Below, piece after piece: positions 23,250-63,713 of a stretch of DNA of 64,000 bases (its first letter is position 1; every line of letters begins with the position of its first letter). A program made the position numbers and the translations under genes. This stretch comes from an uncultured Methanosarcinales archaeon (lineage in GTDB: Archaea > Nanobdellota > Nanobdellia > Woesearchaeales > CAYPCY01), in NCBI GenBank assembly GCA_964409385.1, contig CAYPCY010000003.1, positions 1,885-65,884 of the forward strand, read 5' to 3'. The notes beneath the pieces are model-generated. The model was not told the origin of the DNA and searched no databases. It was given only the letters and a program-made list of their open reading frames with translations.

Positions 23250-25637
23250 GTGAAAAAATTCATTCTATGGTTTGACCAATTAGGAATAGAGGATGTTCCA
23301 TTAGTAGGAGGAAAAAATGCTTCTTTAGGAGAAATGTATAAGAAACTAACAAAGAAGAAAGTTAGAATTCCTAATGGCTTTGCAGTAACTGTAGAAGCAT
23401 ACCATTATTTCTTGGAAAAAGCAGGAGTTAAGAATGATATTAAAAAAATACTTTCAGATTTAGACACTACAAATATTAAGAATTTGCAAGAAAGAGGAGA
23501 AAAAGTAAGGAACCTAATTAGGAATGCAGAATTACCTGAAGAATTAATTAAAACAATATTAGAAGCTTATTCTCACTTAGAAAAACAATATGGAAAACTA
23601 GTGGATGTTGCAGTAAGAAGCTCAGCAACTGCAGAAGACCTACCAGATGCTAGCTTTGCAGGACAACAAGAAACATACTTGAACATTAAAGGCGGATCCC
23701 AACTAATAGACTCTTGCAAAAAATGTTTTGCGTCATTATTCACTAATAGAGCAATTAGTTACAGGAAAGACAAGCACTTTGACCATTTCAGTATTGGCCT
23801 TAGTATTGGAGTTCAAAAAATGGTTAGGAGCGATCTAGCAACTAGTGGAGTAATGTTCTCGATAGATACAGAATCAGGATTTAAGAATGCAGTATTACTA
23901 ACTGCCGCTTATGGCCTTGGCGAAACTGTAGTTCAAGGATCAGTAAATCCGGACGAATACTACATCTTCAAACCAACCTTAAGAGAAAATTATAAGCCAA
24001 TAATAAGCAAAAAAGTAGGATCTAAAAAAATAAAGATGATCTACGATAATGAAGGCAATAAAAATACTAAGATAGTTCCAGTACCAAAAGAACAACAACA
24101 ATTATTCGCGCTTGAGGAGGAAGAAATATTAACACTTGCAAAATGGGCAGTCATAATTGAAGATCATTATTCTAAAAAAGCAGGATATTTCAAACCAATG
24201 GATATGGAATGGGCCAAGGATGGAAAAACAGGAGAACTATTCATAGTACAAGCAAGGCCTGAAACTGTCCAGTCAAGAAAAGACAGTAACAAACTAATAA
24301 ATTATGTTTTGAAAGAAGATGGTAGAGTAATAGTGAATGGAAAGTCTGTTGGTGAAAAAATAGGTCATGGAAGATGCAGGATAATCAAGGATGTAAAAGA
24401 TATTGACAAATTCCAGGAAGGAGAAGTTCTAGTAACTGATATGACAGATCCAGACTGGGAGCCAATAATGAAAATAGCAGCAGGAATTGTAACTAATAGA
24501 GGGGGAAGGACGTGCCATGCATCGATCGTCTCTAGAGAGTTAGGAATTCCTTGCATTGTAGGAACAGAAAAAGGAACTGAAGAAATAAAGTCAGGAACTG
24601 ACATTACAGTAGACTGTTCAAAAGGAGAAATAGGAAGAGTTCTGGAAGGATTGTTAGAATATAAAATTGAAGAAACAGACCTTAAAGAAATTCCAGATAC
24701 TAAAACACATATTATGCTTAATATTGGGAATCCCGACATGGCCTTTGATCTAAGTTTCCTTCCTAATGATGGTGTTGGCCTTGCTAGGGAAGAATTCATA
24801 ATCAATGACTACATAAAAATTCATCCTCTCGCATTAATCAATTATGAAGAGCAAGAACAGGATGTTAAACAAAAAATAGATGGATTAACTTATGGTTATT
24901 CTGACAAGAGCAAATTCTTTATTGACAAGCTAGCGCAAGGCGTGGGAATGTTAGCAGCTGCATTCTATCCAAAACCAGTAATTGTCAGGCTTTCAGACTT
25001 TAAAACTAACGAATACGCAAACTTGATAGGTGGGACAAATTACGAGCCTGAAGAGGATAATCCAATGATTGGCTGGCGTGGCGCATCAAGATATTATAGT
25101 GAAGGCTACAAGGACGCATTCGGGCTAGAATGCAAGGCCATGAAAATAGTAAGAGAAAGATTCGGACTGAAAAACTTGAAATTAATGATACCATTCTGCA
25201 GAACAGTAGAAGAAGCAAAAAATGTTATTAAGACAATGAAAGAATATGGATTAAAACAAGGAGAGAACAATCTTGAAGTTTATGGAATGTGCGAAATTCC
25301 AAGTAATGTATTAATGGCAGAAGAATTCTTAGAAGTCTTTGACGGATTTAGCATTGGAAGTAATGACCTTACACAATTAACATTAGGACTGGATAGAGAT
25401 TCAGAAATTGTAAGTCACTTATTTGATGAAAGAAATGATGCTGTAAAAAGACTAGTAAAGAAAGTTATTGAAATATGTAATAAAAAACATAAGTATATAG
25501 GAATTTGTGGAGACGCACCATCGACATTCCCAGAATTTGCAGAATTCTTAGTGGATGAAAAAATACAAAGCATGTCATTAAGCCCAGATGTTATAGTCAA
25601 GACAAGATTAATAGTTGCTGAGAAAGAATCAAGATAA
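23250..25637 (+). CDS. ppsA: Phosphoenolpyruvate synthase
   Basis: 795 aa with an ATP-grasp N-domain, phosphohistidine swivel GGRTCHASIVSRELGIP and a PEP-utilising C-domain. GTG start. Confidence 0.9.
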   Translation: MKKFILWFDQLGIEDVPLVGGKNASLGEMYKKLTKKKVRIPNGFAVTVEAYHYFLEKAGVKNDIKKILSDLDTTNIKNLQERGEKVRNLIRNAELPEELIKTILEAYSHLEKQYGKLVDVAVRSSATAEDLPDASFAGQQETYLNIKGGSQLIDSCKKCFASLFTNRAISYRKDKHFDHFSIGLSIGVQKMVRSDLATSGVMFSIDTESGFKNAVLLTAAYGLGETVVQGSVNPDEYYIFKPTLRENYKPIISKKVGSKKIKMIYDNEGNKNTKIVPVPKEQQQLFALEEEEILTLAKWAVIIEDHYSKKAGYFKPMDMEWAKDGKTGELFIVQARPETVQSRKDSNKLINYVLKEDGRVIVNGKSVGEKIGHGRCRIIKDVKDIDKFQEGEVLVTDMTDPDWEPIMKIAAGIVTNRGGRTCHASIVSRELGIPCIVGTEKGTEEIKSGTDITVDCSKGEIGRVLEGLLEYKIEETDLKEIPDTKTHIMLNIGNPDMAFDLSFLPNDGVGLAREEFIINDYIKIHPLALINYEEQEQDVKQKIDGLTYGYSDKSKFFIDKLAQGVGMLAAAFYPKPVIVRLSDFKTNEYANLIGGTNYEPEEDNPMIGWRGASRYYSEGYKDAFGLECKAMKIVRERFGLKNLKLMIPFCRTVEEAKNVIKTMKEYGLKQGENNLEVYGMCEIPSNVLMAEEFLEVFDGFSIGSNDLTQLTLGLDRDSEIVSHLFDERNDAVKRLVKKVIEICNKKHKYIGICGDAPSTFPEFAEFLVDEKIQSMSLSPDVIVKTRLIVAEKESR

Positions 25638-26657
25638 TACAAAGTTACCTTGCATTACCTCAACAGTTCTAAAAACAAAAGTTCCATCTTCTTCAATACT
25701 ACCAACTTGATTCCAAGCACTAACTAATTGATCATACAAACTCGCATCTTCAGAAAGCAATACTGTCGGAAGTTTTTCAATATTATACTTTTCAATCAAG
25801 TGAGATGCGGATTCTTTACTAATAAAAGTTTCTGAATTAATACCAACATTGAACTTTTCAAGAATTTCCTTATGAGCAGTAACTTCATAACAATCCTCGC
25901 AAGAAACAGTAATGTAAGTAACATCAACCAAACCCTCAATTTTGTTTGCTGATAAGTTATAGAAGGGAGGATTAGTCTTTCTAAGAACTAACGCGTCAGG
26001 TTCATAACTTCCTATCTGATACCAAGTTTGTAGTTCATACAATAAAGCATCTTCAGAAAGAATAATTGTAGGAAGAATTTCAATATTGTACTTTTCGATT
26101 AATTCACTTGCTTCATCTACTGTTAAAGTTTCCTCTTCAGTAATTAACAATTGTTCTTTTAAGACTTGCTTGAAAGAATCTAATTCAAAACAAACCTCAC
26201 AATCAGGAACTATCTCAGTTAGTTTAACAATTCCCTTGATAATACCTTCTGGAGTCATGTAAGGAATAATAGGATCATAAACTAAAGCATTGTTACTTTC
26301 AACAAATCCTGGAATGTAAATTTCATTAATATCTCCAGTTAGTATTAAAGTCGGTAATTTAGAAATATTATAGTTTTTAACAATATTAATTGCTTCCGCA
26401 TAATTAAAAACTTGATGGGAGGTAACATTACTTAACGAATAAATATTATTGGAAACTTCTGTTAAGTCGGAACAGTATTCACAATCTGCTTGCATTTCAA
26501 CAATGTCAATATTTGGTATTTTTGTTTCTTTATCCAACGTTTCTGAAATAGTTACAAGAATTATTAGTATGAAAGAAATCCCCATTACTAAAGCAACATC
26601 CTTCTCAGCACTATAAAGAAACTTTTTAACCTTCCACCAAAGCTTCTTTTTCTTCAT
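25629..26657 (-). CDS. Membrane-anchored protein with three tandem thioredoxin-fold-like repeats
   Basis: Three repeats of about 95 aa, each with a CxxC (CEYC, CEVC, CEDC) and KYNIEKLPTVLLSED / KYNIEILPTIILSED / NYNISKLPTLILTGD. ATG at 26657 gives MKKKKLWWKVKK plus a TM segment; the track start at 26726 is TTG. Confidence 0.55.
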   Translation of the reverse strand: MKKKKLWWKVKKFLYSAEKDVALVMGISFILIILVTISETLDKETKIPNIDIVEMQADCEYCSDLTEVSNNIYSLSNVTSHQVFNYAEAINIVKNYNISKLPTLILTGDINEIYIPGFVESNNALVYDPIIPYMTPEGIIKGIVKLTEIVPDCEVCFELDSFKQVLKEQLLITEEETLTVDEASELIEKYNIEILPTIILSEDALLYELQTWYQIGSYEPDALVLRKTNPPFYNLSANKIEGLVDVTYITVSCEDCYEVTAHKEILEKFNVGINSETFISKESASHLIEKYNIEKLPTVLLSEDASLYDQLVSAWNQVGSIEEDGTFVFRTVEVMQGNFVLS

Positions 26658-26739
26658 TAAACAAATAAAAGAAAGAAAGAATATAAAAAAGTATTGAAAA
26701 ATCAAGATTTTTGAACTTTCTAACAAAAGTATTGAAAAA

Positions 26740-33928: not shown

Positions 33929-35566
33929 TTATTGAGCCCCACAACCAGGACCTGCTGAAGGTGTTGAGGTTGTTGTTTGTGTCACTGGTTCTTGAACAAC
34001 ACCGTCACAAGCTTCAGGAGCATCCTCAAAAGCAGCACATAAAGCACCTAAATAGCCATTAGCAGTTCTACTACCACCATATTGACTTCCATCAACAAAA
34101 ACAGTTGGACTTCCCCTAACTCCTAATGTATTTCCCATTGAAAGACTTGATTCTAAAAGCTCAATAGCTTCTTCCTGCTGACAAGTTGAAATCATCCCAG
34201 TATCTAACCCTAGAGTTTCAGCAACTCCAGTCCAGCAAATATCCGCATTTTCAAAAGTACAATCAGAATTCATCTTTAAAGCAAAATCAAACCAGTCTGC
34301 CATTCCAGAATACTTAGCAACACATAATTCCCTAACATCCTGATTTAATTCTTGAATTCCATGCATTGAACAATAAACATTCGCTTCATCCAAACAATAT
34401 TCAGGATAACCACTACCGTAATTATTATAAATTACATATTTAGGATTAAAATCAGCAGAATCTTTTAACTGTTCAAAAACAGGAAATATTGCTTCTTCAG
34501 CCTGATTACCATAAGGACAATAACTCATAACAAAAAAGTCAATTTGAGGTTTATTATCTCCAGTAACAATTCCTAAATTGGCTAAAGCTTCCTCTCTAGC
34601 AGCAGGATCAACATTATAAGAAGCTCCAGTAGCTTGAGACTTTAATTTATAACCATATTCTGTAACTTCAAAATAACCTCTTATTTGAGTATTAGTTCTC
34701 CAAGTATTGGTAGTCTGAAGATCTTCTCCAAATAAATAAGCTGGTAAAACTTGAACATTATAAGCATCTACAAGGTCTTGACCTTCACCATTAACTAAAT
34801 CAAAAAATTCAAATGTTGCACCAGGGAATAATTGTTGAGTAACACTCAGCATTTGTGAAGTATCACAATTTCCACAGTCAGAAGATGTTAAAACCTTAAC
34901 TTGAATCTCAACAGGTTGAGGAATATTACTACATCCAGGATCTTCCCAGTTCAATTCTTTACATATAGCCCTTGCAAAATCAGCACTGGACCTCCCAGAA
35001 GTATATCTTTCACCATTCAAATAAATAGTAGGACTTCCACTAGCACCTACAGAATTTGTTTTTGTAATACTTTCAGAAAGTAAATCTGAACCTTCACCAT
35101 TAAAGCAAGATTCTACGACTGAAGTATCAATACCAACCTGACTAGCACAAGTTTGATACTGTGCTATACCATCACCGTACTTCTCATTAAAACAAAGCAC
35201 ATAAGGAAAATGCTTTTCAGGAAAATGCTTTTCAATACATAATTGTCTTATATTCTCATCAACTTCTGGTTGTCCATGAAGACTTCCAAAACCAGAACCT
35301 TGACTGTTTGCAATATATTCAAAATTTAATTCAACATTATCTCCAAATGATTCCATAGATCTTATTGCTTCACTACCTGCTTGAGCTCCGTAAGGACATT
35401 GACTCATAACATACATATCAAGAACAACCTTTCCTGAATAATCAACAGGTTCAGAAGACGGACCTTTAGTAAGCATGAAAATAAATACTACTGCCAAAAC
35501 TACAATTGCGAGTTTTGTAGGCATCCCTAATTTAAATTTTTTCTTTCCGATGTTTTTTTTCACCAT
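33929..35566 (-). CDS. Exported protein with two DsbA/GILT-like thioredoxin-fold domains carrying CPYG motifs
   Basis: N-terminal anchor. Duplicated modules: VMSQCPYGAQA..GSPTIYLNGERY and VMSYCPYGNQAEE..GSPTVFVDGSQY. Confidence 0.6.
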   Translation of the reverse strand: MVKKNIGKKKFKLGMPTKLAIVVLAVVFIFMLTKGPSSEPVDYSGKVVLDMYVMSQCPYGAQAGSEAIRSMESFGDNVELNFEYIANSQGSGFGSLHGQPEVDENIRQLCIEKHFPEKHFPYVLCFNEKYGDGIAQYQTCASQVGIDTSVVESCFNGEGSDLLSESITKTNSVGASGSPTIYLNGERYTSGRSSADFARAICKELNWEDPGCSNIPQPVEIQVKVLTSSDCGNCDTSQMLSVTQQLFPGATFEFFDLVNGEGQDLVDAYNVQVLPAYLFGEDLQTTNTWRTNTQIRGYFEVTEYGYKLKSQATGASYNVDPAAREEALANLGIVTGDNKPQIDFFVMSYCPYGNQAEEAIFPVFEQLKDSADFNPKYVIYNNYGSGYPEYCLDEANVYCSMHGIQELNQDVRELCVAKYSGMADWFDFALKMNSDCTFENADICWTGVAETLGLDTGMISTCQQEEAIELLESSLSMGNTLGVRGSPTVFVDGSQYGGSRTANGYLGALCAAFEDAPEACDGVVQEPVTQTTTSTPSAGPGCGAQ

Positions 35567-47487: not shown

Positions 47488-47793
47488 ATGAGAGTTGTTA
47501 CAGGAAAGTTTTGTAAAACCTTTCTTTCAAGAAGTATAGGATTGATGTTTTCAAAACCTACAACTTTAATATTTGAATTCCCTAATGAAGAAAGAATACC
47601 ATTACATATGTGGTTTGTTTTTTATCCAATAAATGCATATTTTTTAGATTCTGAAAAGAAGATTGTAGAAATAAAAAGATTGATTCCTTTTACTTTGTTT
47701 ACTTCAAAGAAAAAATCAAAATATCTTATTGAAACTGTTGAAAATCTTAATTTGAAAAAAGGAGAAAAAATTTTATTCAAGACCAAGATCTAA
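47488..47793 (+). CDS. DUF192-family protein
   Basis: 101 aa, with a PLHMWFVFYPINAYFLD..KIVEIKRLIPF pattern. Confidence 0.55.
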   Translation: MRVVTGKFCKTFLSRSIGLMFSKPTTLIFEFPNEERIPLHMWFVFYPINAYFLDSEKKIVEIKRLIPFTLFTSKKKSKYLIETVENLNLKKGEKILFKTKI

Positions 47794-47976
47794 ATCTAAA
47801 TCTTCATCAGCATCAATATCATCTTCTAATGTGTTTAAATCATCAGCTTCAGCAACTAAATCATCAAGATCTTCATCAGAAACAATATCTACAGTATCGT
47901 TTCCTTCATTAACAATTGGAGCACAGCTAATTAGAAACAGAGCAATTAATAATATTAGTAGCGTCTTCATTTTCAT
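47773..47976 (-). CDS. Small acidic lipoprotein-like protein
   Basis: MKMKTLLILLIALFLISC lipobox-like signal followed by a D/E-rich tail. Confidence 0.45.
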   Translation of the reverse strand: MKMKTLLILLIALFLISCAPIVNEGNDTVDIVSDEDLDDLVAEADDLNTLEDDIDADEDLDLDLGLE

Positions 47977-48824
47977 ACCTCTATAGTTCTTAATTTAATA
48001 ACAATATCTTTAATTTCGACATATGTTTTCTTCAAAACATTATTTGTTTGTTTTATGCTAGAACTAGCCCTGATAAATATTGCATTTGCTGTTTCTACAT
48101 CCGAAATTTCTGAATATGTATTGTGCGCTTCTTTTAATAAATCTTCAGCAGTTATTAAATTGTTTTTTACTAAAGACAGTCTTTCATTAAATTCTGTAAC
48201 GTCAAAACCATTATCTTCTAAATTTTGTATTTTTATTTCTATCTTTCCAGAAATCTTTCTTGCTTTTGAAATTCCTGCTTTTGCTTTAGAAACTAATACA
48301 AAACCACTATGTTTTTTAACTATTAATTTTGTCTTAACCCATTCTCTCTTAATTGTTTTAGAAACTGTTGTTAAATCTTCTTGAGTTTCTATATTTATAA
48401 TGTCTTCTTGTAAACCTTCTAATAAGTTAATATGTATGTTTATTTCATCTATTAATTCTTCAGGTTTAACTATGAATTCTGATGTTTCCACTCTTGTTTT
48501 TATTTGTTCTAGTTGATTAATTATTTTGTCAACTGCTTTCGCTAGGAATTTCTTTCCCTTATTAATAACAACTTCTTTGTTTTCTATGCTTTTTGCTAAT
48601 TGCCAATTGCTTCTTGCCGTTAAAAACTCACTTTTTGAAGAAATATACGCGTTTTTTGCGATCAGATACTTGTTCTTTGCTAAATTGTGTTTTTGTTTTA
48701 TTAACTTCATAGCGGATAATTTAGAATCTTCTCCAGGCATTGTTGGAACTGCTATTACTTGTGTAACTAAGCTAATTAAAAGGATGAAAATCAATATTAA
48801 TCCTGTTCTATTCATTTTAATCAT
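47973..48824 (-). CDS. Secreted alpha-helical/coiled-coil protein
   Basis: Signal peptide followed by long helical heptad-like sequence. Overlaps the downstream gene by 4 nt. Confidence 0.45.
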   Translation of the reverse strand: MIKMNRTGLILIFILLISLVTQVIAVPTMPGEDSKLSAMKLIKQKHNLAKNKYLIAKNAYISSKSEFLTARSNWQLAKSIENKEVVINKGKKFLAKAVDKIINQLEQIKTRVETSEFIVKPEELIDEINIHINLLEGLQEDIINIETQEDLTTVSKTIKREWVKTKLIVKKHSGFVLVSKAKAGISKARKISGKIEIKIQNLEDNGFDVTEFNERLSLVKNNLITAEDLLKEAHNTYSEISDVETANAIFIRASSSIKQTNNVLKKTYVEIKDIVIKLRTIEV

Positions 48825-49603: not shown

Positions 49604-49723
49604 TGGGGGCGTCCGGATTCGAACCGGAATCTGCTGGTTTAGCCTATTGTAAGTCATCGCATAAAGCTCATCGCTCCACAATAACTGGAGCCAGCCATTC
49701 TAGCCAGGTTATACTACGCCCCC
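49604..49723 (-). tRNA. tRNA-Trp (CCA) with a 46-nt intron at 37/38 (about 49639-49684)
   Basis: Acceptor GGGGGCG/CGCCCCC with discriminator A, anticodon stem GCTGG/CCAGC, loop CTCCAG|intron|A, T-arm TCCGG-TTCGAAT-CCGGA. The D-stem is weak (GTAT/GAAT) and the BHB is relaxed. Confidence 0.7.
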
Positions 49724-49761: not shown

Positions 49762-51849
49762 TCATTTCTTCTTAGAAGTTTTATGAATAGAAGATATAAA
49801 TATATTAATACATCCAACCAGAAAGAAAGCCAACACTAAATAAATATAATTACCATACACATTAATCCACTCTGTCAATGTCTTTTCTTCTCTTAATATA
49901 GGCTGGAAAGTAAAAATAGGACTTTCAATAAGTCCAGACTCATCCCCTGCTAAGAATACAGCATTAAACTGTTCTAAACTAGCAGAATTAACAGTAATTA
50001 AAGAAGTATTAACAAAAATATCTTCAGAGCCATTGTAAAAGAAAGAAATATTATCAAAATCTGCATCAGAAATGAAATCATTCAAGTCTAAAGTTAAAGA
50101 TTCATTAACAAAAAATTCAAAGTATAAAGAAGACTCATTAGAATATGGCTCTTGTAAATCTAAATGAGTTGAAACAACAAATCCTACAAAGAAAATAAAC
50201 GCTAAAACAGGAATAAAAACATAAGGGTTCTTATTGAATTTCCTCTTAATCTTAGCAGTCTTAACAATTAAAGTGCAAGCTAACAACAAAACAATCAAGG
50301 TAATCACAGCCAATGAAGGAATAGCAACATTACTTTCTCCAAACGCAATAATTGTCTTTTCAAACTCATTATAATCCCTATATTTAGTAGTAATAGTGAA
50401 ATTATAAGAGAAATCTCCATAAGTTAAAGTAATATTAGATTCATAAATTGCAAAAGGTTTAGTAGTGTTAACATTAAACTTCAAACTTCCCGGAATAGAA
50501 ATATTCATTGTTTCCAAAGATAATATTTCAGATTCTAACTCAACATCAAAATAAGACGCTTGAAAACCTGAAGGTTTTACAAACAAGTCAATACTATTAT
50601 AATGTGGTTTTATTACCAAGAAATCTTTACTTAATTTAGGTTTATAACAAGATTCTGAAGTTTGGTATTCTATCTTAAAAGACTCTTCATCAGAAAGTTC
50701 TTCATATCCCTTCAAATAAACAATCGCTGTTTCTCTACTGGAGAAATCAGAAGCGTTAATTATTTCAAATTCTATAAGTTCTGAAGAATTAACTTCTACC
50801 TTAACTTCTTTTGAAGTATTAAATAGTGAGACAACATAATCTCCAGAATAAACTCCTGTATTTTCTATATTGACTTCTACAGGAGATTCACAAAGTTGTT
50901 GATCTTCAACCAATAATTTAGGAATATTACAATTTATGGTAGAAATATTAATTGAATAAGTTTTTGTTTTGGAAGAAGAATAAACCTTCAATTTTAAAAC
51001 TTCAGAAGTTTCAACATCAGAAAATAAAGAAAGTTTCAAATCTTTAGATTCTAGAGCTTCTAAAGAAAAAGAAGTATTATCTAACTCTCCAAAACTAGTT
51101 TCTAAAGTGAAATTATCCGAACTTAAATTATTATTAGTTAATGAAATTATGATTTCTTCAGAAACTCCCTGACATAAAGAATATTGTTCTTCCATTCTTA
51201 ACTCATGAGAATAGCAAGACTTAAATCCAGGAAATGAAATTTTTGCTTTTAAATTATTATTAAGTGCCTTAACTGTGAATGTCGTATTCGCTTCACCAGT
51301 ACTATTTAATTCTATGATTAAATTATTGAATGCTGCAGATTCTAAAGTAAAATTCTTGAAATAATCTCTAGAATCCACTTCATAATATTCCTTGAAATTA
51401 CCAATGTTTTCAATAGTTAAATTGTAAGTATTTTGTTGATCAAAACAAACTTGTTCATTACTAGTGCCATAAACCATTAAATTCTGACACATCCCAGTCT
51501 TAAAAGTTTTTGAAAATTCTTTAACATTTCCATAAGTAGAACTTATCCTAAAATTGAATTTTCCTTCACTATTCTTACAAGATAGAGGATAATAAATAAT
51601 AAATTCTCCTTGTTGTCCAGGCTCTAAAAATAATTGGTTAGAATCAACATTCAGTTCTGATTCTAAAATATAATAAGAACCATAACTACCAGTATTTTGA
51701 ACTATTATAGAATCTTCAATTTCTGAACATCTACATCCCTGAACAAAACTATTAGTGAAAACTTGAAAAGAATCTGATTGGGTGTTAATTTCAATAGCTT
51801 GAGAAATAGGTAAAATCAATAGTAATAATAAAAAAATAGTTAATCTCAT
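49762..51849 (-). CDS. Large exported protein with CARDB/NEW3-like repeats and C-terminal TM helices
   Basis: ATG at 51849 gives MRLTIFLLLLLILPISQA. Recurrent hxhxNxGxxxxxY strands (IIVQNTGSYGSYY, LTIENIGNFKEYY, VNIENTGVYSGDY). TM segments lie near the C-terminus. Confidence 0.5.
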   Translation of the reverse strand: MRLTIFLLLLLILPISQAIEINTQSDSFQVFTNSFVQGCRCSEIEDSIIVQNTGSYGSYYILESELNVDSNQLFLEPGQQGEFIIYYPLSCKNSEGKFNFRISSTYGNVKEFSKTFKTGMCQNLMVYGTSNEQVCFDQQNTYNLTIENIGNFKEYYEVDSRDYFKNFTLESAAFNNLIIELNSTGEANTTFTVKALNNNLKAKISFPGFKSCYSHELRMEEQYSLCQGVSEEIIISLTNNNLSSDNFTLETSFGELDNTSFSLEALESKDLKLSLFSDVETSEVLKLKVYSSSKTKTYSINISTINCNIPKLLVEDQQLCESPVEVNIENTGVYSGDYVVSLFNTSKEVKVEVNSSELIEFEIINASDFSSRETAIVYLKGYEELSDEESFKIEYQTSESCYKPKLSKDFLVIKPHYNSIDLFVKPSGFQASYFDVELESEILSLETMNISIPGSLKFNVNTTKPFAIYESNITLTYGDFSYNFTITTKYRDYNEFEKTIIAFGESNVAIPSLAVITLIVLLLACTLIVKTAKIKRKFNKNPYVFIPVLAFIFFVGFVVSTHLDLQEPYSNESSLYFEFFVNESLTLDLNDFISDADFDNISFFYNGSEDIFVNTSLITVNSASLEQFNAVFLAGDESGLIESPIFTFQPILREEKTLTEWINVYGNYIYLVLAFFLVGCINIFISSIHKTSKKK

Positions 51850-51877
51850 AGTAAAAAAAAGAGAAAAAAATTCAGAC

Positions 51878-53104
51878 TTAGTAATAAGTCTGATCTTCGT
51901 CTTCATCTGATGCGTTCATCTTTCTGAAGCCTATAATTAATCCAAGCAGTATTAAAATAACTACTAGAACAATCAAAGCAACTTCAAGAGTTTTTCTCAA
52001 TGCACTTGAATCAGAAGCGCTTGAAACGTTTGCAGTCAGACTAACCTGGCTTTCTTCACCGTCAGTTGATATGGTAGCTGTAAAAACATTCTCGCCTGAA
52101 GCATCCTCGTTAGCAGTAACTTGGATGAATACAGTCTTTGTTTCTCCGCCATCAACAACTAAAACGTTGCTAGGGTCAATAGTAGCTACACCCCAGGATG
52201 AAACTCCTGATAAGCTAATAGTATAAGTCCTAGCGCTTGAGCCAGTGTTTTGAAGAGTTAAAGGATATGAAGCTGATTCTCCAGCTAGTACATCCTGAGC
52301 GTCTAAAACAGTAACTACGGTTTCAGCATTTTCTTGTGAAGCACACAAGTCTGAAGCAGTAACTGTTAATGTCTTCTCAGCAGATACTTCCCTAGTACCT
52401 TCATCGTAAGAAACTTCAGCTTTCACCGTGTAAGTTCCTTCAGCAGTACATTCTGGAATGAAAACCATTAAGTCTTCAAAAAAGTCAGAATCTTCAGCAA
52501 CTAACTCGTCCAAGTACTGAACATCTTGAAGATTTAGTTCAGGAACAGATAGAGTAACTTTAACATCATCTTGAGATTCTGTTCCAGTATTCTTAACCCT
52601 AATTCTTCCAATAACTGATCTTCCAGCTTCAGTTTCACTTGAAGGACTCAAGCTAAAGTCTGAAATCTTTAATTGATGCCTTGCAGAATCAATCTTTAAA
52701 TCGAAATATTTACTGAAATCTTCCATATTTCTTGCAGAAACTCTAACTTTTAACTGGTAATAGTCAGAATCCATGTTTGATGGAAGTTCTAAATCGAAAT
52801 TCTTAACATAAGAAGTTCCGTTTTCCATATCAAACAAAGAAGATGTTTCTGAAATGGAACCATATTCATAACCGCTAATTGTAACTTCTACTTCAACATT
52901 TTCAGCTGCGGCTGTAGAGTCTAATACAACAGTTAGATCAAACTCTTCACCTCTTTCTAGACTTAACACATTACTATAATCTTCATCAAGGCTTATTCCA
53001 TCTAATTTTACTGTCGAAACAGTAACTGGAACAGCATCTGCGAAAACCATAGTTGACATTAATATGCTAAGTGCCAACATGATAATTATTTTCCCCGAAT
53101 TCAT
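51878..53104 (-). CDS. Exported CARDB/NEW3-like repeat protein with C-terminal TM anchor
   Basis: Signal peptide, VRVKNTGTESQDDV and LTLQNTGSSARTY strands, and a C-terminal anchor LEVALIVLVVILILLGLIIGF plus an acidic tail. Confidence 0.5.
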   Translation of the reverse strand: MNSGKIIIMLALSILMSTMVFADAVPVTVSTVKLDGISLDEDYSNVLSLERGEEFDLTVVLDSTAAAENVEVEVTISGYEYGSISETSSLFDMENGTSYVKNFDLELPSNMDSDYYQLKVRVSARNMEDFSKYFDLKIDSARHQLKISDFSLSPSSETEAGRSVIGRIRVKNTGTESQDDVKVTLSVPELNLQDVQYLDELVAEDSDFFEDLMVFIPECTAEGTYTVKAEVSYDEGTREVSAEKTLTVTASDLCASQENAETVVTVLDAQDVLAGESASYPLTLQNTGSSARTYTISLSGVSSWGVATIDPSNVLVVDGGETKTVFIQVTANEDASGENVFTATISTDGEESQVSLTANVSSASDSSALRKTLEVALIVLVVILILLGLIIGFRKMNASDEDEDQTYY

Positions 53105-53188
53105 ATTAAACCCCTCGTTATTTTTTTATTCTGGAGTAAAAACTCCTGTTAACTATTCGTAAGTTAATACTTTTATTTAAATCTTTCC

Positions 53189-55387
53189 CTACCTTATCCT
53201 CAGTAGTAAGTATTTATTTCTGTAAATGTTTTTTCCCTTCACTGTTAACTTGCCATAATAGTTTCCTTTTTTTCCGTTAGGAATGTGAATTCTGACAGTT
53301 TCACTCTTACTTCTGCCAGGTTTTACGTCAAAAGTTCCTGATCTATGCCTTAGTCCCAAATCAGGAATTGAAAAACTTATTGAAATATCTTCCATTTTAG
53401 TATCTGCCGTGTTTTCAAATCTTAATCTTGTAGTTAACAAATCGCCAGCAACAACATCAATAACATTTCCTTGTTGAGCATTTCCTGCAGTAGACAATGA
53501 AAACTTGCTTATTTTGAAATCATTCTTCGCAGACCTGAAAGAAACTTGTTCTTCCTCCTCTTGTTCTTCTGGTTCTTCAATTTCTTCTTCAACAACAGTA
53601 ATTGTTAAAGAGTCAGAACTTGAAAGATTATTAGAATCTGTAATTGTTAAAGTAGCAGTATAATTTCCTGCTTGAGTAAATGAATAATTAATGAAACTCC
53701 CTTCAACAACATCCCCTTCAATACTCCAAACAAAATTATCCAAAGTAGCATTTCCTAAAGCATAACTTTGACTACCGTTTAAGACAAAAACTTCATTAAC
53801 AAGAACATTAATATCATCTCCAGCAATAGCTATAGGATATTCAAAGACCTGTTCTGAAATATTAACTGAAACAATTGTTTCATCAAAATCATTATCCAAA
53901 TCAAAAACTCTTACTTTGAATTCTGTAACTCCCGCATCTACAGAAGTCATTGTTAATAAATTATTATCAAGACTTACTAATAGTTTACTAACATCAACTT
54001 CTAAAACTTCCCAATTAAACTCGTTATCTTCAAGATCAGACGCTTCTAATTCTAAATTAATAGTTTCTCCATAAGTCATATTTATGACTGAAATCTCTTC
54101 AATAATAGGAGGATTGTTCAAAATAGTTAATGAAACCTCTTCCTGACCTCCAGTATCATCAGTAAAGTTAAAAACAAAAGTAAAAACTTGAGATTCTCCA
54201 AAAAACTCGTGAGTTAATGGAATGGTTACTGAATATTCATAATTGCCAATAGAATTTAATTCAATATTACCGCCTGCTAATGGACTAACTAAGTAAGCAG
54301 AACTTACAAGTCCAGAAACTGAATTTCCAGACATGTCTTGAACATCAAAATCAACATACAATGTTTCTCCTCTATAAAATTCATAATCTTCTATGGAAAA
54401 GTCTGCATCATTGTAAATTTTTAAATCAATAATATCATATGTTTCTGGAATAACTTCGAAACTAAAAGAGTCAGAAATTGTTGAAGCATAACCTTCCTCT
54501 GAAGCTTCTGCATGAACAGAAAATGTTCCCAATTCATTCATATTTATATTAACTCCACAAGATCCGCTTATCGAATCAGTAGTACAAGTTCCAAATAATG
54601 AATTATCTGAAAAATAAAATTCCACATTTGATTCTGCAGGAAAACCTTCTGAAACAACATCAACAGAACAAAACTGGCTATGATTTTGAATTACTGTTTC
54701 AAAACAAGAAATTCCAGTAATATTCAAATCAGCAGAAACAGGAACTGTTTTAGTTACTGAATCAGTCTCGCCATTAGGATCTTGAACTGTTAAAGTAACA
54801 AACTTATTTCCTGGAGTTGTATAATAATAAGTTGCAGATTCTTCAGTCGAATCAACAAACCCATCAGAATTAAAATCCCAAGAAAAACTTAAACTATCCC
54901 CATCAGGATCTGAACTAGCACTAGTGAAACTTATCACTTCATAAATTTTAGGACTTACAGGATTGAAAGTAAAATCAGCAACAGGCGCATTATTAGTTTC
55001 ATTATCTTCCTGTTCTTCTTCTTGAACAGTTAATGTAATGAAAGACTGACTACCATCATTTAAAGAATCTTCCGCGCTAAGAATAACATAATAAGTCCCG
55101 ACAGATAAATAAGTCTCTTCTCCAAAAGAATGATTGAAGAATTTACTATTAGTAGTGGTTGTTCCTTCATAAAAATCATATAAACTTTCAGTAGTATCTT
55201 GCTCTATTAAATAAACAGAATAAGTCATTGGAGGACTCATTGTAAATGCATCAGCCAAGAAATTAACTGAATCACCAACATCAATAGTTTTTATTAAAGT
55301 TTGGTCATCCCATTCAATATAAGTAACTATTGCTGAAGCATTCATTACAAGCAATAAACTTAGTAAAATGAATAATAACTTCTTCAT
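53189..55387 (-). CDS. Exported PKD-domain protein
   Basis: Signal peptide MKKLLFILLSLLLVMNASA. PKD signature PVADFTFNP..SFSWDFNSDG..TYYYTTPGNKFVTLTVQD and a second PKD-like module ..NYTATLTITDSNN. Confidence 0.7.
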   Translation of the reverse strand: MKKLLFILLSLLLVMNASAIVTYIEWDDQTLIKTIDVGDSVNFLADAFTMSPPMTYSVYLIEQDTTESLYDFYEGTTTTNSKFFNHSFGEETYLSVGTYYVILSAEDSLNDGSQSFITLTVQEEEQEDNETNNAPVADFTFNPVSPKIYEVISFTSASSDPDGDSLSFSWDFNSDGFVDSTEESATYYYTTPGNKFVTLTVQDPNGETDSVTKTVPVSADLNITGISCFETVIQNHSQFCSVDVVSEGFPAESNVEFYFSDNSLFGTCTTDSISGSCGVNINMNELGTFSVHAEASEEGYASTISDSFSFEVIPETYDIIDLKIYNDADFSIEDYEFYRGETLYVDFDVQDMSGNSVSGLVSSAYLVSPLAGGNIELNSIGNYEYSVTIPLTHEFFGESQVFTFVFNFTDDTGGQEEVSLTILNNPPIIEEISVINMTYGETINLELEASDLEDNEFNWEVLEVDVSKLLVSLDNNLLTMTSVDAGVTEFKVRVFDLDNDFDETIVSVNISEQVFEYPIAIAGDDINVLVNEVFVLNGSQSYALGNATLDNFVWSIEGDVVEGSFINYSFTQAGNYTATLTITDSNNLSSSDSLTITVVEEEIEEPEEQEEEEQVSFRSAKNDFKISKFSLSTAGNAQQGNVIDVVAGDLLTTRLRFENTADTKMEDISISFSIPDLGLRHRSGTFDVKPGRSKSETVRIHIPNGKKGNYYGKLTVKGKNIYRNKYLLLRIR

Positions 55388-56823
55388 TTTTTACCTCTCA
55401 ATAATTTAGATAATGAAATACCGTAAGCAATATCATTATTTTTCAAATTTAGAAGTGCATTTCCTTTAACTTCATAAGTTCCAAACTTTCTTCCCAATCC
55501 AACATTCAAAATATTATTTTGCTCATTAGAATTTTCTATATAAGAATCAGAATTACTAGCCAATACAGTTCCATTTCTACTAATTTCTTCATAAACTTTA
55601 GTAGTTTCTTCAACAAGTTTATTTTCTAAACCAACTCCTAAAAACAAGTTCCAATCCTTCACAGGAATTCCCAAACTAAGAACATGATAATTATTAGAGA
55701 GGTCTGAAGAAACATCCTTAGTTCCATAATTAGTGAAACTTAAACCTTCTTCATTAACTGTTTCTGTAGGATTTTTCTTTCCTAATTTTGAATTTGCAAA
55801 AGAATACTCAAACCAAACAGGACCTACTTTCTTACCAAGAACTAAACCATTTCCATTACCAACCCAATTTAATTGAGTTCCAGGATCATTAATTCTTTGA
55901 TATCCTAAAAACCAGTCTTCATTACTTGGTTTAAATCTTGTTGAATCTTTCTTGTTTTTCTTCAATAAATTCTTAACAAATCTAGAATATTTGTTCATAC
56001 TAGTATCTTTAACAGTTGATTGAAACAAACTATCCAATGAAGTATATGAAGAGTCTGTATCTACTGTTGAATCAACTGGTGCGTAAGAATTCAAAAATCT
56101 TGCAACATCAACTATCTTCTTAGATTCTTCATCATTAAATAATGTAGATGCAGAAAGTAATATTTCATCAGGATTTAAACTTCTTAAACTATCAGAATTA
56201 TTATTTAATGCAGTTCCGTTATAGAACATATCATTAAAGTAAGAATCCATAATATCTAAAGATTCTTTTGAACTGAAATCAGAAATTTCTTTCAAATCCT
56301 TAAATAAAACATCTCCCTTATTATTTCCTCCAAAATATACCGGATCATCAGAAGAAAGCATCATCAGAGTATCTTCAGGAGTAAAATTTACAGATTTGTC
56401 GTTATAACGAACATCAGTAATGTCATTATTACTATTATATACAAAAGAAAAGTTTGAATATCTTACTTCTTCAGGAGTATTATTTAGTTTGAAAACCAAA
56501 GCGCCATATGAGAAAGATTCAAGATTCTTTTTGTTAACAATTCCTAAATCCCTTACTGCTTGAGCCAAAGAAGTTTCTTCTAAAGGCTGCACATAATGAA
56601 TTTTGGACATTTTACTTGAAGTTCCTAAATAAGTTAGTGTTTCGTCTGAAGAATTGAAAATTATATCATCAACTTCATTAGTTAAACTATCTAAAGAATT
56701 CAGGTCTTTAGTTACTTTGTTTCTAAAATCAGTAATACCTTCTAAACTTTCATCAACAGTCTGACCATTTAATGGCATTAAAGAACTTAAAGCTAAAGCT
56801 CCAACAGTTATTGCTTTTTTCAT
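55384..56823 (-). CDS. Exported protein with beta-barrel-like C-terminal domain
   Basis: Signal peptide MKKAITVGALALSSLMPLNG. The C-terminal 190 aa or so shows alternating hydrophobic strands: YHVLSLGIPV, WNLFLGVGLE, ILNVGLGRKFG, YEVKGNALLNL and IAYGISLSKLL. Confidence 0.45.
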   Translation of the reverse strand: MKKAITVGALALSSLMPLNGQTVDESLEGITDFRNKVTKDLNSLDSLTNEVDDIIFNSSDETLTYLGTSSKMSKIHYVQPLEETSLAQAVRDLGIVNKKNLESFSYGALVFKLNNTPEEVRYSNFSFVYNSNNDITDVRYNDKSVNFTPEDTLMMLSSDDPVYFGGNNKGDVLFKDLKEISDFSSKESLDIMDSYFNDMFYNGTALNNNSDSLRSLNPDEILLSASTLFNDEESKKIVDVARFLNSYAPVDSTVDTDSSYTSLDSLFQSTVKDTSMNKYSRFVKNLLKKNKKDSTRFKPSNEDWFLGYQRINDPGTQLNWVGNGNGLVLGKKVGPVWFEYSFANSKLGKKNPTETVNEEGLSFTNYGTKDVSSDLSNNYHVLSLGIPVKDWNLFLGVGLENKLVEETTKVYEEISRNGTVLASNSDSYIENSNEQNNILNVGLGRKFGTYEVKGNALLNLKNNDIAYGISLSKLLRGKK

Positions 56824-57596
56824 TTTTTACCCTCCGAAAATAAATCTTCTAATTTTTCAGTTTCTACAATTTCATATTGAATTTGTTTAGAACCATTATC
56901 AAAAGTGAAATTAACAATTGACAATTCTTGCTGTTCTAATTGTTTTTTAACATTTTTTAATTCATCCCTAGTACTAATATAATTTCTAAGATTCGAATCA
57001 CTTAATTGCTCTACGATAATAGTACTTGCATAGTTTTTATCGTCGTGAGTTATGAACAAATCAAGATGTTCCTTATTTATTTCTGCAGCGTATAAAACAT
57101 CAATTAAATTCATGAAATTTTTATATGCAGGAACATTTTCTTTTATACCATTCTTACCATAAGAAAATTCTATTTTATTATTATCAAAATTCACAATATA
57201 TGCTCTGTTAGAATCATAATTTTCCAAATTAGGAATTTCTATCTTATTTTCTAAAGAATGAAGTTCTGAAATTAAATTAGTTTTTTCATTATTTAATTCA
57301 GATATTGTTTTTTCACGATTATTTAACTTTTGTTTCCAAACCTTTTTCTCACTTGAATAATCTTCCTTCAAATTTTCTAAGAACAAATTTGTTTGATTTA
57401 ATGAGTCAGACAAAACTTCAGTTTGTTCGATATAAGGTCCTAATTTTAATTCGGCAATCTTATCAACACTATTTCTATAAACTAATGAACCTGCAGTCAT
57501 TACAGTCGCTGCACCAGCAAGTGCAATCATTAAATTAAATTTTCTAATTTTGCCCTTCGGCTTTTTGAAATTTAAGTTCTTACTCATTCTTATCAC
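56820..57596 (-). CDS. Membrane-anchored coiled-coil protein
   Basis: Basic N-terminus, TM segment LMIALAGAATVMTAGSLVY, then coiled coil. 4-nt overlap with the downstream gene and 17-nt overlap with the upstream gene. Confidence 0.45.
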   Translation of the reverse strand: MIRMSKNLNFKKPKGKIRKFNLMIALAGAATVMTAGSLVYRNSVDKIAELKLGPYIEQTEVLSDSLNQTNLFLENLKEDYSSEKKVWKQKLNNREKTISELNNEKTNLISELHSLENKIEIPNLENYDSNRAYIVNFDNNKIEFSYGKNGIKENVPAYKNFMNLIDVLYAAEINKEHLDLFITHDDKNYASTIIVEQLSDSNLRNYISTRDELKNVKKQLEQQELSIVNFTFDNGSKQIQYEIVETEKLEDLFSEGKK

Positions 57597-58818
57597 CTAT
57601 TTTTGAAATCACATAATCAGTAATTTCTTGAAATGGATTTTTAGATAAGGATGCTGTCAAACCATCCATACCAGAAAAAGACTCGTTAATTAGAACATAA
57701 GGAACTCCAGTATCTGCAGACTTCCTAATTTCTTTCTTTTCTGGAAGTATTGTAGCATGTATAGAATGATTACTCCCAAAATCATTTCTTATAGAATCCT
57801 TAAATTGTGAAATTAAATCAAGAGCATAATCCTCATCAGAAGTGAAAAAATTCTTTCTAACCTTGTTTAATATCAAAACTGAAGAATACTCTTTAGTTAG
57901 AATATTATTTATTTTATTGTAAACATCAACATTAAGATCTTTAGCCAAGTCATTATTAAGAACATCATTTAAACAATCTGTTTCTAAAGCATCTTTTAAT
58001 AAACCAAAAGTTTGACCATTAACTAAATGACTAATTTCGGAAGTTAATTTATTTAATTCAAATTCCTTATTTCTTTTTACAGCTTCTGAATAAAAATCAT
58101 AAGCATCTTGCATTGCTGCAAAATCAAGACTTGAAACTAGAATTGGAACATCTGCATTACTCCAAACTTCATAAACTAAATTATGAGTTCCACTAGATAA
58201 ATCTCTAACAATGACATCTATATTTTGGTTTGTTAACCATTTATCTTTAAACCTGTGAAATTTTTCTCTAGAACTTGTAGCATAATAATCAGTTCCAGAA
58301 ACAGGAACTTTATTGTTTAAAGAATAATATAATCTTTCTAAATATTTAGAAGGTATAATAAAATTTTCAAAAGGAAACATTTCAATAATTTTACTTGCGC
58401 CTAACCTACTAACATTTTCTTGTTTTGAATACGCCTCGAACAAATCCTTATCTTCAGGAAGTCCCTCTTCTGAAGGACCATAAATTCCTAAATCAATATC
58501 TGCCCGTCTTGGAACATTAGGATTTACAAAATTTTCATCAGAAAGAAGAATTGAATAAGACCTTGACTTTTTTGGTAAAATAGAAACTGCTTGATTTCCA
58601 TAACTTGGATTCCAATCTCCTTCTTCATCAACTAAATGATGACCTCGCATATATTGAGGAATGGTCTCGTCAGATTTGTAATCTCCAATTTCAACACCAG
58701 GATTTTTCTTAAGTTTATTTAATTCCTTAGCTAACAAAGTAGCTAGATTAACAGAAATTGTAGACTTTCCAATTCCCCCCTTATCTGAACTTACAGCAAT
58801 AGTAAATTGTCTATTCAA
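57580..58818 (-). CDS. ParA/MinD-family P-loop ATPase with large insertions
   Basis: Deviant Walker A SSDKGGIGKST and a Walker B-like DVIVRDLSSG; 412 aa; TTG start in the track. Confidence 0.7.
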   Translation of the reverse strand: MNRQFTIAVSSDKGGIGKSTISVNLATLLAKELNKLKKNPGVEIGDYKSDETIPQYMRGHHLVDEEGDWNPSYGNQAVSILPKKSRSYSILLSDENFVNPNVPRRADIDLGIYGPSEEGLPEDKDLFEAYSKQENVSRLGASKIIEMFPFENFIIPSKYLERLYYSLNNKVPVSGTDYYATSSREKFHRFKDKWLTNQNIDVIVRDLSSGTHNLVYEVWSNADVPILVSSLDFAAMQDAYDFYSEAVKRNKEFELNKLTSEISHLVNGQTFGLLKDALETDCLNDVLNNDLAKDLNVDVYNKINNILTKEYSSVLILNKVRKNFFTSDEDYALDLISQFKDSIRNDFGSNHSIHATILPEKKEIRKSADTGVPYVLINESFSGMDGLTASLSKNPFQEITDYVISKIGDKNE

Positions 58819-58919
58819 TATAATCCCCCGGAAATGCCTCTTTTAACCACTAAGAAGTAGAACAATGTTTATAAAGATTTGTCTTTGTAGTAATTATAAA
58901 ATGGTAACAATTAAAAAGA

Positions 58920-61946: not shown

Positions 61947-63713
61947 TTATCCACTCTTATTATATCTAAACAAATAAGCATAAGTATTACCATTAACAAA
62001 GAAAATATTCTCTTGATAAAATAACTCATCAAAGTTTAATGACATGTTTTGAGGAGGAATAATGAGCATCTCAGTAACAAAACCCTTCTCAATAGTCTGT
62101 GCAGGATCTAAAGTGGTTAATTGCTTAACATACAAAATATTATTCTCAATTAATTCTTTCTCAAATTCAGGAGATGTCTTGACAGGATAATTCATAAAAT
62201 ACTGATCCAAGTACAAATACTTAATAGAATAATTATCTAACAACTCCTTTTGCAAAGTAATATTATTAGAATACCAAATCAAAACAGCATCCTTAATTCT
62301 CTCATTAATATCAACAAAATAACTAGCATGAGTTCGTCTAGTAATCATAACCTTCTTCCCAGATAATGCTTGTAAACCAAAAGAAGTCTCATCATTAGCC
62401 AATATTGCCTTGTCATTAGGTAAATTCGTCTTAAAATAATCCCCAATATTGTGCAATTCAGTCATATCTGCCTTAGTACCATGCTCAAACCAGCGACCCT
62501 CTCTAACATTCCCATAACTAACAACTAAATTACTCAACACCAAAATAAAAACAAGCAAGTAACTAAACTTAACAAATTGTTTAGAAAATTTCTTCACAAT
62601 TAAATAAACACCAATAATTCCAAAAGCAAAAAATATTGGCTTGAAAAAAACAAAATAATTCAACTTAGGAACGAACACCCAAAAAGCAAACAAAGGCCTA
62701 GTAATCTGATGATGCTGCAAAATAACCAAATTAGTAAAGAAAAAACTCAATAAAATTTTAGATTCTTTCCTCTTAAAATTCATAATTAATAATATAAAAC
62801 CGACAACAACAAATAAAGAAATAAGAACATTTACAAAAGATGAAAAATTAAAGAAAAAATTCTTCAAAGAAGTCAATAACCAACCAAAACCTAAATGAGT
62901 AATATAAGTATCACCATATTGCATTACCGGATTAGGACGAGAACTCCCATAACGAAAAAACAAAGGCAAAAAATAAATTAAAGAAACTAAAATTGCAGAA
63001 GCGAACAAGGAATAATACTTTTTAATATAAATCCAAACACCATTGAATCCATTCTTCTTCAAATTAGAAAAATAATCAAACAACAAATAAACTCCGAAGA
63101 ACGCCAAACCAATCAAAAACTTAGAACCATGAACTAACGAAGTCAACCCCAAAAAAACACCAGAATAAAGCAAATTTCTAACATGCTGATGTTTCAGCTC
63201 ATACTTCAGAAAAAAATAAATAGAAGCTGGAAGAAAAACAAACTCACCAAAACGAGTTCCCTTCGAACCAATAAACACAATACTAGAAATTATAAAAAAC
63301 AAATACAAAAACTTCACATACAACTCTTTCTTAAACAACAAATCAGCAAGTTTATAATGAATAAACAACATCAAAGAAGTAGTTAATAAAGGAAAGAAAA
63401 TCATCAACTTATCAACATTAAAAGATAAAAATTTGGCAAGAAAGCCTAAAACTGCAAAGTACAACCAAGGATAATACTGCAACTCACCAAGATAATAGCC
63501 ATCCTCCCAAGGCATGAACCCTTGAACAACACTCTCAATAAACCCCCTATCCCTATAAAAATCGCCGCCATAAACAGGCCCGTTAAGACTAGTCAAAGAA
63601 ACCATTAAAGAAAATTGAATAATCAGATAAGCAATCAACAACAAAACAAACAAAGATTTATAATTCCAAAATTTAGAAAAGTCAACCTTAAAATCTTCAC
63701 TCATCAAAAACAA
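61947..63713 (-). CDS. Polytopic GT-C-type glycosyltransferase (ArnT/PMT-like)
   Basis: More than ten TM helices, an N-terminal loop with an acidic motif, and a soluble C-terminal domain; 588 aa. Confidence 0.5.
   Translation of the reverse strand: MFLMSEDFKVDFSKFWNYKSLFVLLLIAYLIIQFSLMVSLTSLNGPVYGGDFYRDRGFIESVVQGFMPWEDGYYLGELQYYPWLYFAVLGFLAKFLSFNVDKLMIFFPLLTTSLMLFIHYKLADLLFKKELYVKFLYLFFIISSIVFIGSKGTRFGEFVFLPASIYFFLKYELKHQHVRNLLYSGVFLGLTSLVHGSKFLIGLAFFGVYLLFDYFSNLKKNGFNGVWIYIKKYYSLFASAILVSLIYFLPLFFRYGSSRPNPVMQYGDTYITHLGFGWLLTSLKNFFFNFSSFVNVLISLFVVVGFILLIMNFKRKESKILLSFFFTNLVILQHHQITRPLFAFWVFVPKLNYFVFFKPIFFAFGIIGVYLIVKKFSKQFVKFSYLLVFILVLSNLVVSYGNVREGRWFEHGTKADMTELHNIGDYFKTNLPNDKAILANDETSFGLQALSGKKVMITRRTHASYFVDINERIKDAVLIWYSNNITLQKELLDNYSIKYLYLDQYFMNYPVKTSPEFEKELIENNILYVKQLTTLDPAQTIEKGFVTEMLIIPPQNMSLNFDELFYQENIFFVNGNTYAYLFRYNKSG

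Follow-up and report, generated by a model that had tools for sequence, protein, structure and literature searches.

A Candidate Lineage-Specific Surface Module with a MinD-like ATPase Gene Beside a Probable S-Layer Gene in an Uncultured Archaeon

Introduction

ATPases of the MinD/FlhG branch place machines of the cell envelope. Described members are FlhG, TadZ/CpaE, and BcsQ in bacteria, and MinD4 in Haloferax, which acts on archaella and chemosensory arrays. This report concerns a locus of six co-directional genes, named here A to F, that begins with the gene of a MinD-like ATPase (A). The locus occupies 49762-58818 on the minus strand of a 64,000-nucleotide stretch (the window) of contig CAYPCY010000003.1, from the assembly of an uncultured archaeon. 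A preliminary description had placed six minus-strand open reading frames (ORFs) with overlaps of 17, 4, and 4 nucleotides here, and the longest ORFs were recovered with exactly the same coordinates. Genes A to D are read, tentatively and at somewhat short of an even chance, as a lineage-specific coupled module lying beside a probable S-layer gene, E. A switch derived from MinD (A) would act through the N-terminal tail of a membrane protein (B), the ectodomain of B would organize two further proteins (C and D), and D would dock in the layer formed by E.

The locus is similar to the FlhG/TadZ/BcsQ/MinD4 class in several respects. Protein A has a deviant Walker A motif with the signature lysine, a Walker B motif, and the core downstream of it. 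Its gene shares an operon with envelope components, and the presumed partner, B, carries a short basic N-terminal peptide. It differs from that class in the ~140 extra residues of A, in the low identity of A to its nearest MinD-like relatives (~20-23%), and in the Asn that aligns with the second Asp of switch I. A also lacks both an amphipathic targeting helix and the DQAxxLR motif of FlhG, and no known machine contains a homologue of B or C. Searches of the six genes and their neighbours against Pfam and NCBIfam identified no pilin, prepilin peptidase, secretin, TadA/B/C, cellulose synthase, archaellum, or type IV pilus components. The immunoglobulin (Ig)-domain VARTIG module of the Thermococcales differs in having no ATPase.

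The statement in the preliminary description that no archaeal system of this composition has been described agrees with the searches made here, since no match was obtained in Pfam, NCBIfam, PADLOC, PHROGs, the sequences of the PDB, or the literature searched. The coupling of a ParA/MinD ATPase to envelope components is a known theme, and this locus is a variant of it that is limited to a few related populations.

Gene Layout and Expression Signals

Gene A (57580-58818) encodes 412 amino acids, gene C (55384-56823) encodes 479, and gene D (53189-55387) encodes 732. The longest ORF of gene B (56820-57596) encodes 258 amino acids from a GTG at 57596. The most likely start of B is the ATG three codons downstream, which gives a 255-amino-acid protein (56820-57587) in agreement with gene callers and is preceded by a GGTGA Shine-Dalgarno-like motif. 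Overlaps between the longest ORFs are 17 nucleotides for A and B, 4 for B and C, and 4 for C and D. The first of these holds for the longest ORFs, and becomes 8 nucleotides with the likelier start of B. Gene E (51878-53104, 408 amino acids) follows D after a gap of 84 nucleotides (53105-53188). The longest ORF of gene F (49762-51906, 714 amino acids) nominally overlaps E by 29 nucleotides.

All promoter, terminator, and Shine-Dalgarno assignments given here are pattern readings of the sequence. B, C, and D each have a Shine-Dalgarno-like motif within the gene before them, an arrangement suggesting that A, B, C, and D are translationally coupled. The intergenic region upstream of A (58819-58919) contains two TATA-like sequences, TTTATAAA and TTTTATAA, and a GGGGGA Shine-Dalgarno-like motif 7 nucleotides before the TTG start. 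A T5 run is present 3’ of the epimerase gene that lies upstream of A.

The 84-nucleotide region between D and E contains GGAAAG and ATTTAAATA, which resemble a B recognition element and TATA box. It also holds a small hairpin (GGAGTTTTTACTCC), and GAGGGG precedes the start of E as a Shine-Dalgarno-like motif. At the other end of E, a hairpin (TCAGACTTATTACTAAGTCTGA) extends across the stop codon and is followed by T7 and T8 runs (51850-51893). This arrangement resembles an archaeal terminator and is kept in a related contig, L001. The single six-gene operon of the preliminary description is doubtful because E has a TATA-like element and a terminator-like signal of its own. The transcription units, as suggested by these signals, are probably A-B-C-D, then E, then F.

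Conservation of the Locus

Contig L001, which is 41.5 kb in length and comes from another sample, contains the entire locus, and the gene order is unchanged there and in the flanks. Identities between the proteins of the window and those of L001 are 82% for A, 74% for B, 72% for C, 79% for D, 94% for E, and 76% for F. Two short contigs of a more distant lineage, L002 and L003, retain the end of A, followed by B, C, and the first part of D. Their C proteins are 58-59% identical to that of the window, and the 17- and 4-nucleotide overlaps at their junctions are unchanged. The remaining related contigs belong to the window’s own population. The preliminary description had proposed conservation in related genomes as a check. 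The order and overlaps of A-B-C-D are kept in every relative recovered, and these relatives are a few closely related populations.

All six genes are functional and under purifying selection. The ratios of nonsynonymous to synonymous substitution (dN/dS) between the window and L001 are 0.13 for A, 0.12 for B, 0.28 for C, 0.22 for D, 0.087 for E, and 0.22 for F. The neighbouring enzyme genes have values of 0.12-0.16, which puts A and B at the level of constraint of housekeeping genes.

The GTDB species representatives (one genome per species) contained no relative of A or C. A search of IMG/VR with A and E gave no match, and a viral origin is therefore not supported. PADLOC identified no defence family among the genes, and PHROGs gave a match to the P-loop only.

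The ATPase

Protein A contains the deviant Walker A motif KGGIGKST at residues 13-20, including the signature lysine. A candidate switch I (ILLSDEN) is located at residues 90-96 and a Walker B motif (VIVRDLSSG) at residues 202-210, with N318 further downstream. The protein has no transmembrane (TM) segment and a single Cys (C282), and is predicted to be cytoplasmic. Typical relatives are ~250-290 amino acids in length, as compared to 412 for A. The extra sequence consists of a poorly alignable stretch at residues 36-172 and a helical insertion at residues ~250-310, the latter shared by some distant MinD-like matches. Both insertions are polar and charged in composition. This agrees with the preliminary description, in which A was a ParA/MinD ATPase with large insertions.

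Two generic Pfam models are matched just above their cut-offs, PF10609 with 27.7 bits (cut-off 27.1) and PF01656 with 27.6 bits (cut-off 25.4), and both matches cover residues 6-32 only. All other curated families are missed by far. The NCBIfam scores are 21.1 bits for minD_arch (cut-off 201.75), 23.4 bits for minD_bact (cut-off 212.9), and 26.2 bits for the ParA_partition model NF041546 (cut-off 180), the last within the N-terminal 27 amino acids only. ApbC gives 22.6 bits (cut-off 348) and ArsA_ATPase 12.4 bits. The bacterial tyrosine kinase (BY-kinase) model TIGR03018 gives a weak N-terminal match of 16.6 bits (cut-off 230.65) with an E-value of 0.0037. The P-loop is the sole part of A that matches sequences in the PDB, and Pfam scans of its sub-domains returned nothing significant.

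Among 5.8 billion proteins, A retrieved itself and one orthologue of 82% identity. An exhaustive HMMER search of 1.84 billion representatives added six weak MinD-like matches with E-values of ~1e-4. These six score best on minD_arch or minD_bact; the N-terminus is FlhG-like in two of them, and a PilZ domain is present in one. The contigs of two of the six were examined and are very short, with uninformative neighbourhoods. A comparison of A with the six proteins by hhalign gave a probability of 98.7% over residues 173-379, which includes the Walker B region. Ten positions are invariant in a MAFFT alignment of A with MinD-like proteins (K13, G14, G15, G17, K18, D94, D206, G210, D223, and N318). 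Judged by these motifs and alignments, A is a genuine but extremely divergent ATPase of the ParA/MinD fold, within the MinD/FlhG branch.

In the MAFFT alignment, ILLSDEN of A falls under VLILDAD, with D94 retained and N96 in place of the second switch-I Asp in both A orthologues; this region lies outside the hhalign match. The second switch-I Asp (D40 in MinD and in Soj) is needed for hydrolysis. Because it aligns with Asn96, A is possibly a slow hydrolyser of ATP, as far as this insecure alignment can be trusted.

Five described classes were considered for A and rejected. It is not MinD proper, as its scores are far below the minD_arch and minD_bact cut-offs and its C-terminus, FQEITDYVISKIGDKNE, is net acidic and has no basic amphipathic helix for membrane targeting. 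It is not a Soj or partition ParA, as the ParA_partition cut-off is not reached and the next gene encodes a TM protein rather than a DNA-binding ParB-like partner. Mrp/NBP35/ApbC proteins were set aside on the basis of the single Cys, which leaves no CxxC, and the low ApbC score. BY-kinases of the Wzc/CapB type were set aside because A has the KGG lysine, which they lack, and no C-terminal tyrosine cluster; the protein ends in ITDYVISKIGDKNE, with a single Tyr in the last 22 residues. It does not resemble a Get3/ArsA-like targeting factor, as the insertions are neither Met-rich nor hydrophobic, CxxC is missing, and the ArsA_ATPase score is low. The preliminary description had named partition ParA and Mrp/NBP35 as the groups in which A might prove to belong; A falls in neither, and its detectable relatives are MinD/FlhG-like only.

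The MinD-type character of these nearest relatives also suits an explanation without a shared machine. A would be a lineage-specific MinD-like housekeeping regulator of division, the nucleoid, or some other positioning process, and would happen to lie upstream of envelope genes, in a compact genome in which unrelated genes often overlap slightly. The genes are densely packed, and other neighbours overlap as well (two epimerase genes, and a pair encoding 67 and 283 amino acids). Synteny is documented among close relatives only, and E, and probably F, have their own expression signals. The extreme divergence of A (~21 bits against the archaeal MinD cut-off) is unlike a conserved housekeeping MinD. 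At the largest divergence available, moreover, the A/B junction persists with its 8-17-nucleotide overlap and the Shine-Dalgarno-like motif inside A, as does the basic tail of B. This explanation is considered unlikely, with a chance that is still far from negligible.

Membrane Protein B

Protein B is bitopic, with one TM segment at residues 22-40. Its cytoplasmic N-terminal tail has the pattern LNxKKPKxKxRKxN, in which K8, K9, P10, K11, K13, R15, and K16 are invariant across three lineages. The TM segment is followed by a short, heptad-like stretch that resembles a coiled coil, and then by a conserved C-terminal globular domain. The preliminary description had called B a membrane-anchored coiled coil. 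The anchor stands, and the coiled coil is short (~35-40 residues by eye) and was confirmed by no predictor. No family match was obtained for B in Pfam, NCBIfam, or sub-domain scans, and no sequence match in the PDB.

The pairing of a P-loop protein with a membrane protein that has an extracytoplasmic helical segment recalls the CapA/CapB and Wzc systems. A and B could accordingly be seen as a split BY-kinase/co-polymerase pair (CapB/CapA, Wzc-like) within a control module for glycan or polysaccharide export, with C as an export or attachment component. Directly upstream of A, on the same strand, are genes of glycosylation: two NAD-dependent epimerases/dehydratases, a family 2 glycosyltransferase (GT2), and a 588-amino-acid polytopic protein. 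L001 continues with an STT3-type oligosaccharyltransferase and a Polysacc_synt flippase. A is of one P-loop class with the BY-kinases, and TIGR03018 gives it a weak N-terminal match. The differences noted above for BY-kinases, the KGG lysine and the missing tyrosine cluster, argue against such a pair. B has a single TM segment, whereas two flank the periplasmic domains of polysaccharide co-polymerases, and A has a promoter-like region of its own, with the T5 run after the epimerase gene. An export module of this kind is improbable.

One member of this glycosylation cluster, the 588-amino-acid protein (61947-63713, minus strand), is highly polytopic and has no Pfam match. It may serve as a polymerase or transferase of glycans.

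Protein C

Protein C is an orphan that is predicted to be secreted or anchored. Three protein clusters in total were found for it in the 5.8 billion proteins, profile search included. Its N-terminal hydrophobic segment is unusually conserved in an alignment. No significant Pfam match was obtained for C, outer membrane protein families gave none even at E-values up to 5, and no PDB sequence matched at E-values up to 10.

An AlphaFold2 (AF2) model of C has a helical N-terminal half and an all-beta meander at residues 300-479. Its mean predicted local distance difference test score (pLDDT) is 36, with 45-60 in the beta region. Foldseek searches with this low-confidence model gave 8-stranded barrels (OmpA, OmpX, Ail, and NspA) as the best PDB structures, with target-normalised TM-scores of 0.43-0.66 and a root-mean-square deviation of 8-11 Å. 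The N-terminal half matches the pore-former families PlyB_C and NheB/C at chance level (E-values of 0.014-0.04). A test for beta-strand alternation gave no signal for C and was without power, as the OmpX control barely scored. C had been called beta-barrel-like in the preliminary description; sequence searches gave no support for this, and the only support is the low-confidence AF2 model.

The barrel-like folds and the pore-former matches would suit a device for contact with a host, in which C is a small OmpX/Ail-like barrel or a pore former for the membrane of a partner cell, D is an adhesin, and A and B control deployment. D is rich in PKD domains, as adhesins often are. Against this stand the low confidence of the model, the large Foldseek deviations, the missing Pfam and PDB matches, and the strand-alternation result, within its lack of power. 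The symbiont lifestyle of the organism is an assumption. Such a device is very improbable.

A more elaborate form, in which A-B-C-D is an undescribed trans-envelope device of a host-dependent archaeon, has the faintest chance of the readings considered here. The MinD-derived switch would control, through the tail of B, an OmpX/Ail-like barrel (C) and a PKD adhesin (D) in the S-layer, and would form a contact site or pore to the partner cell. If true, C would be the first beta-barrel of the outer-membrane type to have a function in an archaeon, and ParA/MinD ATPases would gain a new class of cargo.

Proteins D and E

Protein D has a signal peptide and no membrane anchor, and is predicted to be secreted. 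It is very acidic and is composed of several Ig-like domains. PKD domains are located at residues ~132-216 and 522-598, in addition to a Big_9-like region. The Pfam scores are 80.7 bits for PF18911 (cut-off 27) and 53.5 bits for PF00801 (cut-off 23.5), with a weak match to NEW3. The first of these leaves no question about the label of PKD protein that D had been given. Residues 619-732, the C-terminal domain of D, share homology with domains 1 and 2 of E (BLASTP E-values of 2e-7 and 0.003, respectively).

Protein E has a signal peptide, three Ig-like domains (NEW3/CARDB/FixG_C), a C-terminal TM segment, and a short acidic tail. It contains three N-glycosylation sequons. The NCBIfam model NF033506 (‘putative S-layer protein’) matches E with 107.6 bits, just under the cut-off of 110, and an E-value of 6.7e-31 over model positions 295-620 of 627. 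No other gene in the neighbourhood is as conserved as E, which has 93.9% identity to its L001 orthologue as compared to 82-89% for the neighbouring enzymes and A. The 2-kb bin in which it lies has the highest G+C content of the locus (0.345 versus 0.27-0.30; the window as a whole has a G+C content of ~30%). This conservation and composition are consistent with a highly expressed structural protein.

E is a probable S-layer or major envelope protein on these grounds. It is like the proteins of NF033506 in its signal peptide, Ig-like domains, C-terminal TM anchor, acidic character, and position as the most conserved gene of its locus. It is unlike them in scoring just under the cut-off, in lacking the N-terminal ~290 model positions, and in having only three sequons. 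No DPANN S-layer protein has so far been determined experimentally (bioRxiv 10.1101/2023.10.27.564410).

Protein F

The most likely start of F is M20 at 51849, which gives a protein of 695 amino acids (49762-51849) with a classical signal peptide, MRLTIFLLLLLILPISQA, and agrees with the gene call of the Joint Genome Institute (JGI). From this start, F is separated from E by a 28-nucleotide gap containing the hairpin and the T7 and T8 runs, and the nominal 29-nucleotide overlap is probably an artefact of the longest ORF.

F is polytopic, with four hydrophobic segments, 12 Cys residues, and 20 N-glycosylation sequons. It consists, in order, of the signal peptide, an ectodomain of ~490 amino acids, a TM hairpin at residues 529-580, a second ectodomain, and a C-terminal TM segment. 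The Cys residues of the ectodomain are ~92 amino acids apart and a C-x(9-12)-hxhxNxG motif recurs, which hints at Ig-like modules. No Pfam or NCBIfam domain was found in F, Pfam gave no match to its isolated ectodomains at E-values up to 5, and hhalign gave no similarity between F and E (probability 0.3%). The preliminary description had grouped E and F as CARDB/NEW3-like repeat proteins with C-terminal anchors. This is correct for E. F is polytopic, and no such domain was detected in it.

Two proteins elsewhere in the window, encoded at 33929-35566 and 25629-26726 (both minus strand), have GILT/DsbA/thioredoxin-like domains. They may help to form disulfide bonds outside the cytoplasm, in keeping with the many Cys residues in the ectodomain of F.

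Downstream of F lie T-runs and a tRNA gene with an intron (49604-49723, minus strand), a gene missed by default ARAGORN and by the Rfam gathering run. In its E-value mode Rfam detects this gene with 43.1 bits and an insertion of ~50 nucleotides in the anticodon loop. ARAGORN with the -i option calls it Pyl(CTA), with a 46-nucleotide intron at position 36. If the intron were spliced out at the canonical 37/38 position, the loop would read CU-CCA-GA and the product would be tRNA-Trp(CCA). The intron contains the box-C-like motifs CGAUGAG and CGAUGAC.

Proposed Function of the Module

In the favoured reading of A-B-C-D as a coupled module, A would be a cytoplasmic, ATP-dependent dimerisation switch and possibly a slow hydrolyser. 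It would dock on the invariant Lys/Arg-rich N-terminal tail of B. Partners of ParA/MinD proteins typically present a basic N-terminal peptide. The ectodomain of B would recruit C and D on the outer side of the membrane. D would then dock into the E layer by means of its C-terminal domain, which matches the domains of E in type. In this manner, the module would place or gate a specialised surface structure, for example an adhesive patch, within the S-layer. E would have its own promoter and a separate terminator, and F would be a further membrane protein of the same island, rich in Cys and sequons. The analysis establishes the gene structure, the fold class of A, the topologies, the domain homology between D and E, the conserved order of A-B-C-D, and purifying selection; the contacts between the proteins, the role of A as a switch, the nature of the structure that is built, and an assembly or positioning function are inferred.

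Several points weigh against this reading and account for the tentative grade given to it. The AF2 models of A (pLDDT of 34) and C (mean pLDDT of 36) are unusable as guides to contacts. Residues 36-172 of A cannot be aligned with confidence, and the reading of Asn96 comes from one MAFFT alignment. A and C occur in no more than about three closely related metagenomic lineages among the 5.8 billion proteins. The syntenic relatives form one narrow clade, in which the gene order may reflect recent common ancestry. The promoter and terminator calls, finally, are pattern-based.

If A truly acts through B on secreted proteins, positioning or gating by ParA/MinD ATPases would extend to structures embedded in the S-layer of small archaea, whose envelope biology is little known. 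The locus offers a small, concrete set of candidates: one for an S-layer protein (E) and three for accessory proteins of the surface (D, C, and F). Given the few known populations, the impact is local unless analogous modules turn up elsewhere.

Genomic Neighbourhood

The window is archaeal and chromosomal, as it encodes aCPSF1, subunits A and B of topoisomerase VI, an archaeal-type SecD, and a DnaG-type Toprim protein. It also encodes a phosphoenolpyruvate synthase and a B12-dependent ribonucleotide reductase. Because N-glycosylation genes adjoin the cluster, it reads as part of an envelope and N-glycosylation island.

Beyond the tRNA and a gene on the opposite strand, two small predicted exported proteins are encoded at 47773-48824 (minus strand) with an overlap of 4 nucleotides. 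The larger, of 283 amino acids, has a signal peptide, is rich in helices, and has no family match. The smaller, of 67 amino acids, carries LISC, a lipobox-like motif, and its tail is very acidic. This gene pair may be part of the same envelope island.

A HerA-family ATPase is encoded at 8598-10574 on the plus strand, and matches CedD, a DNA-translocating ATPase, more weakly. Its neighbours on the opposite strand are an ATP-binding cassette (ABC) transporter pair and two proteins of 328 and 851 amino acids that have no family matches.

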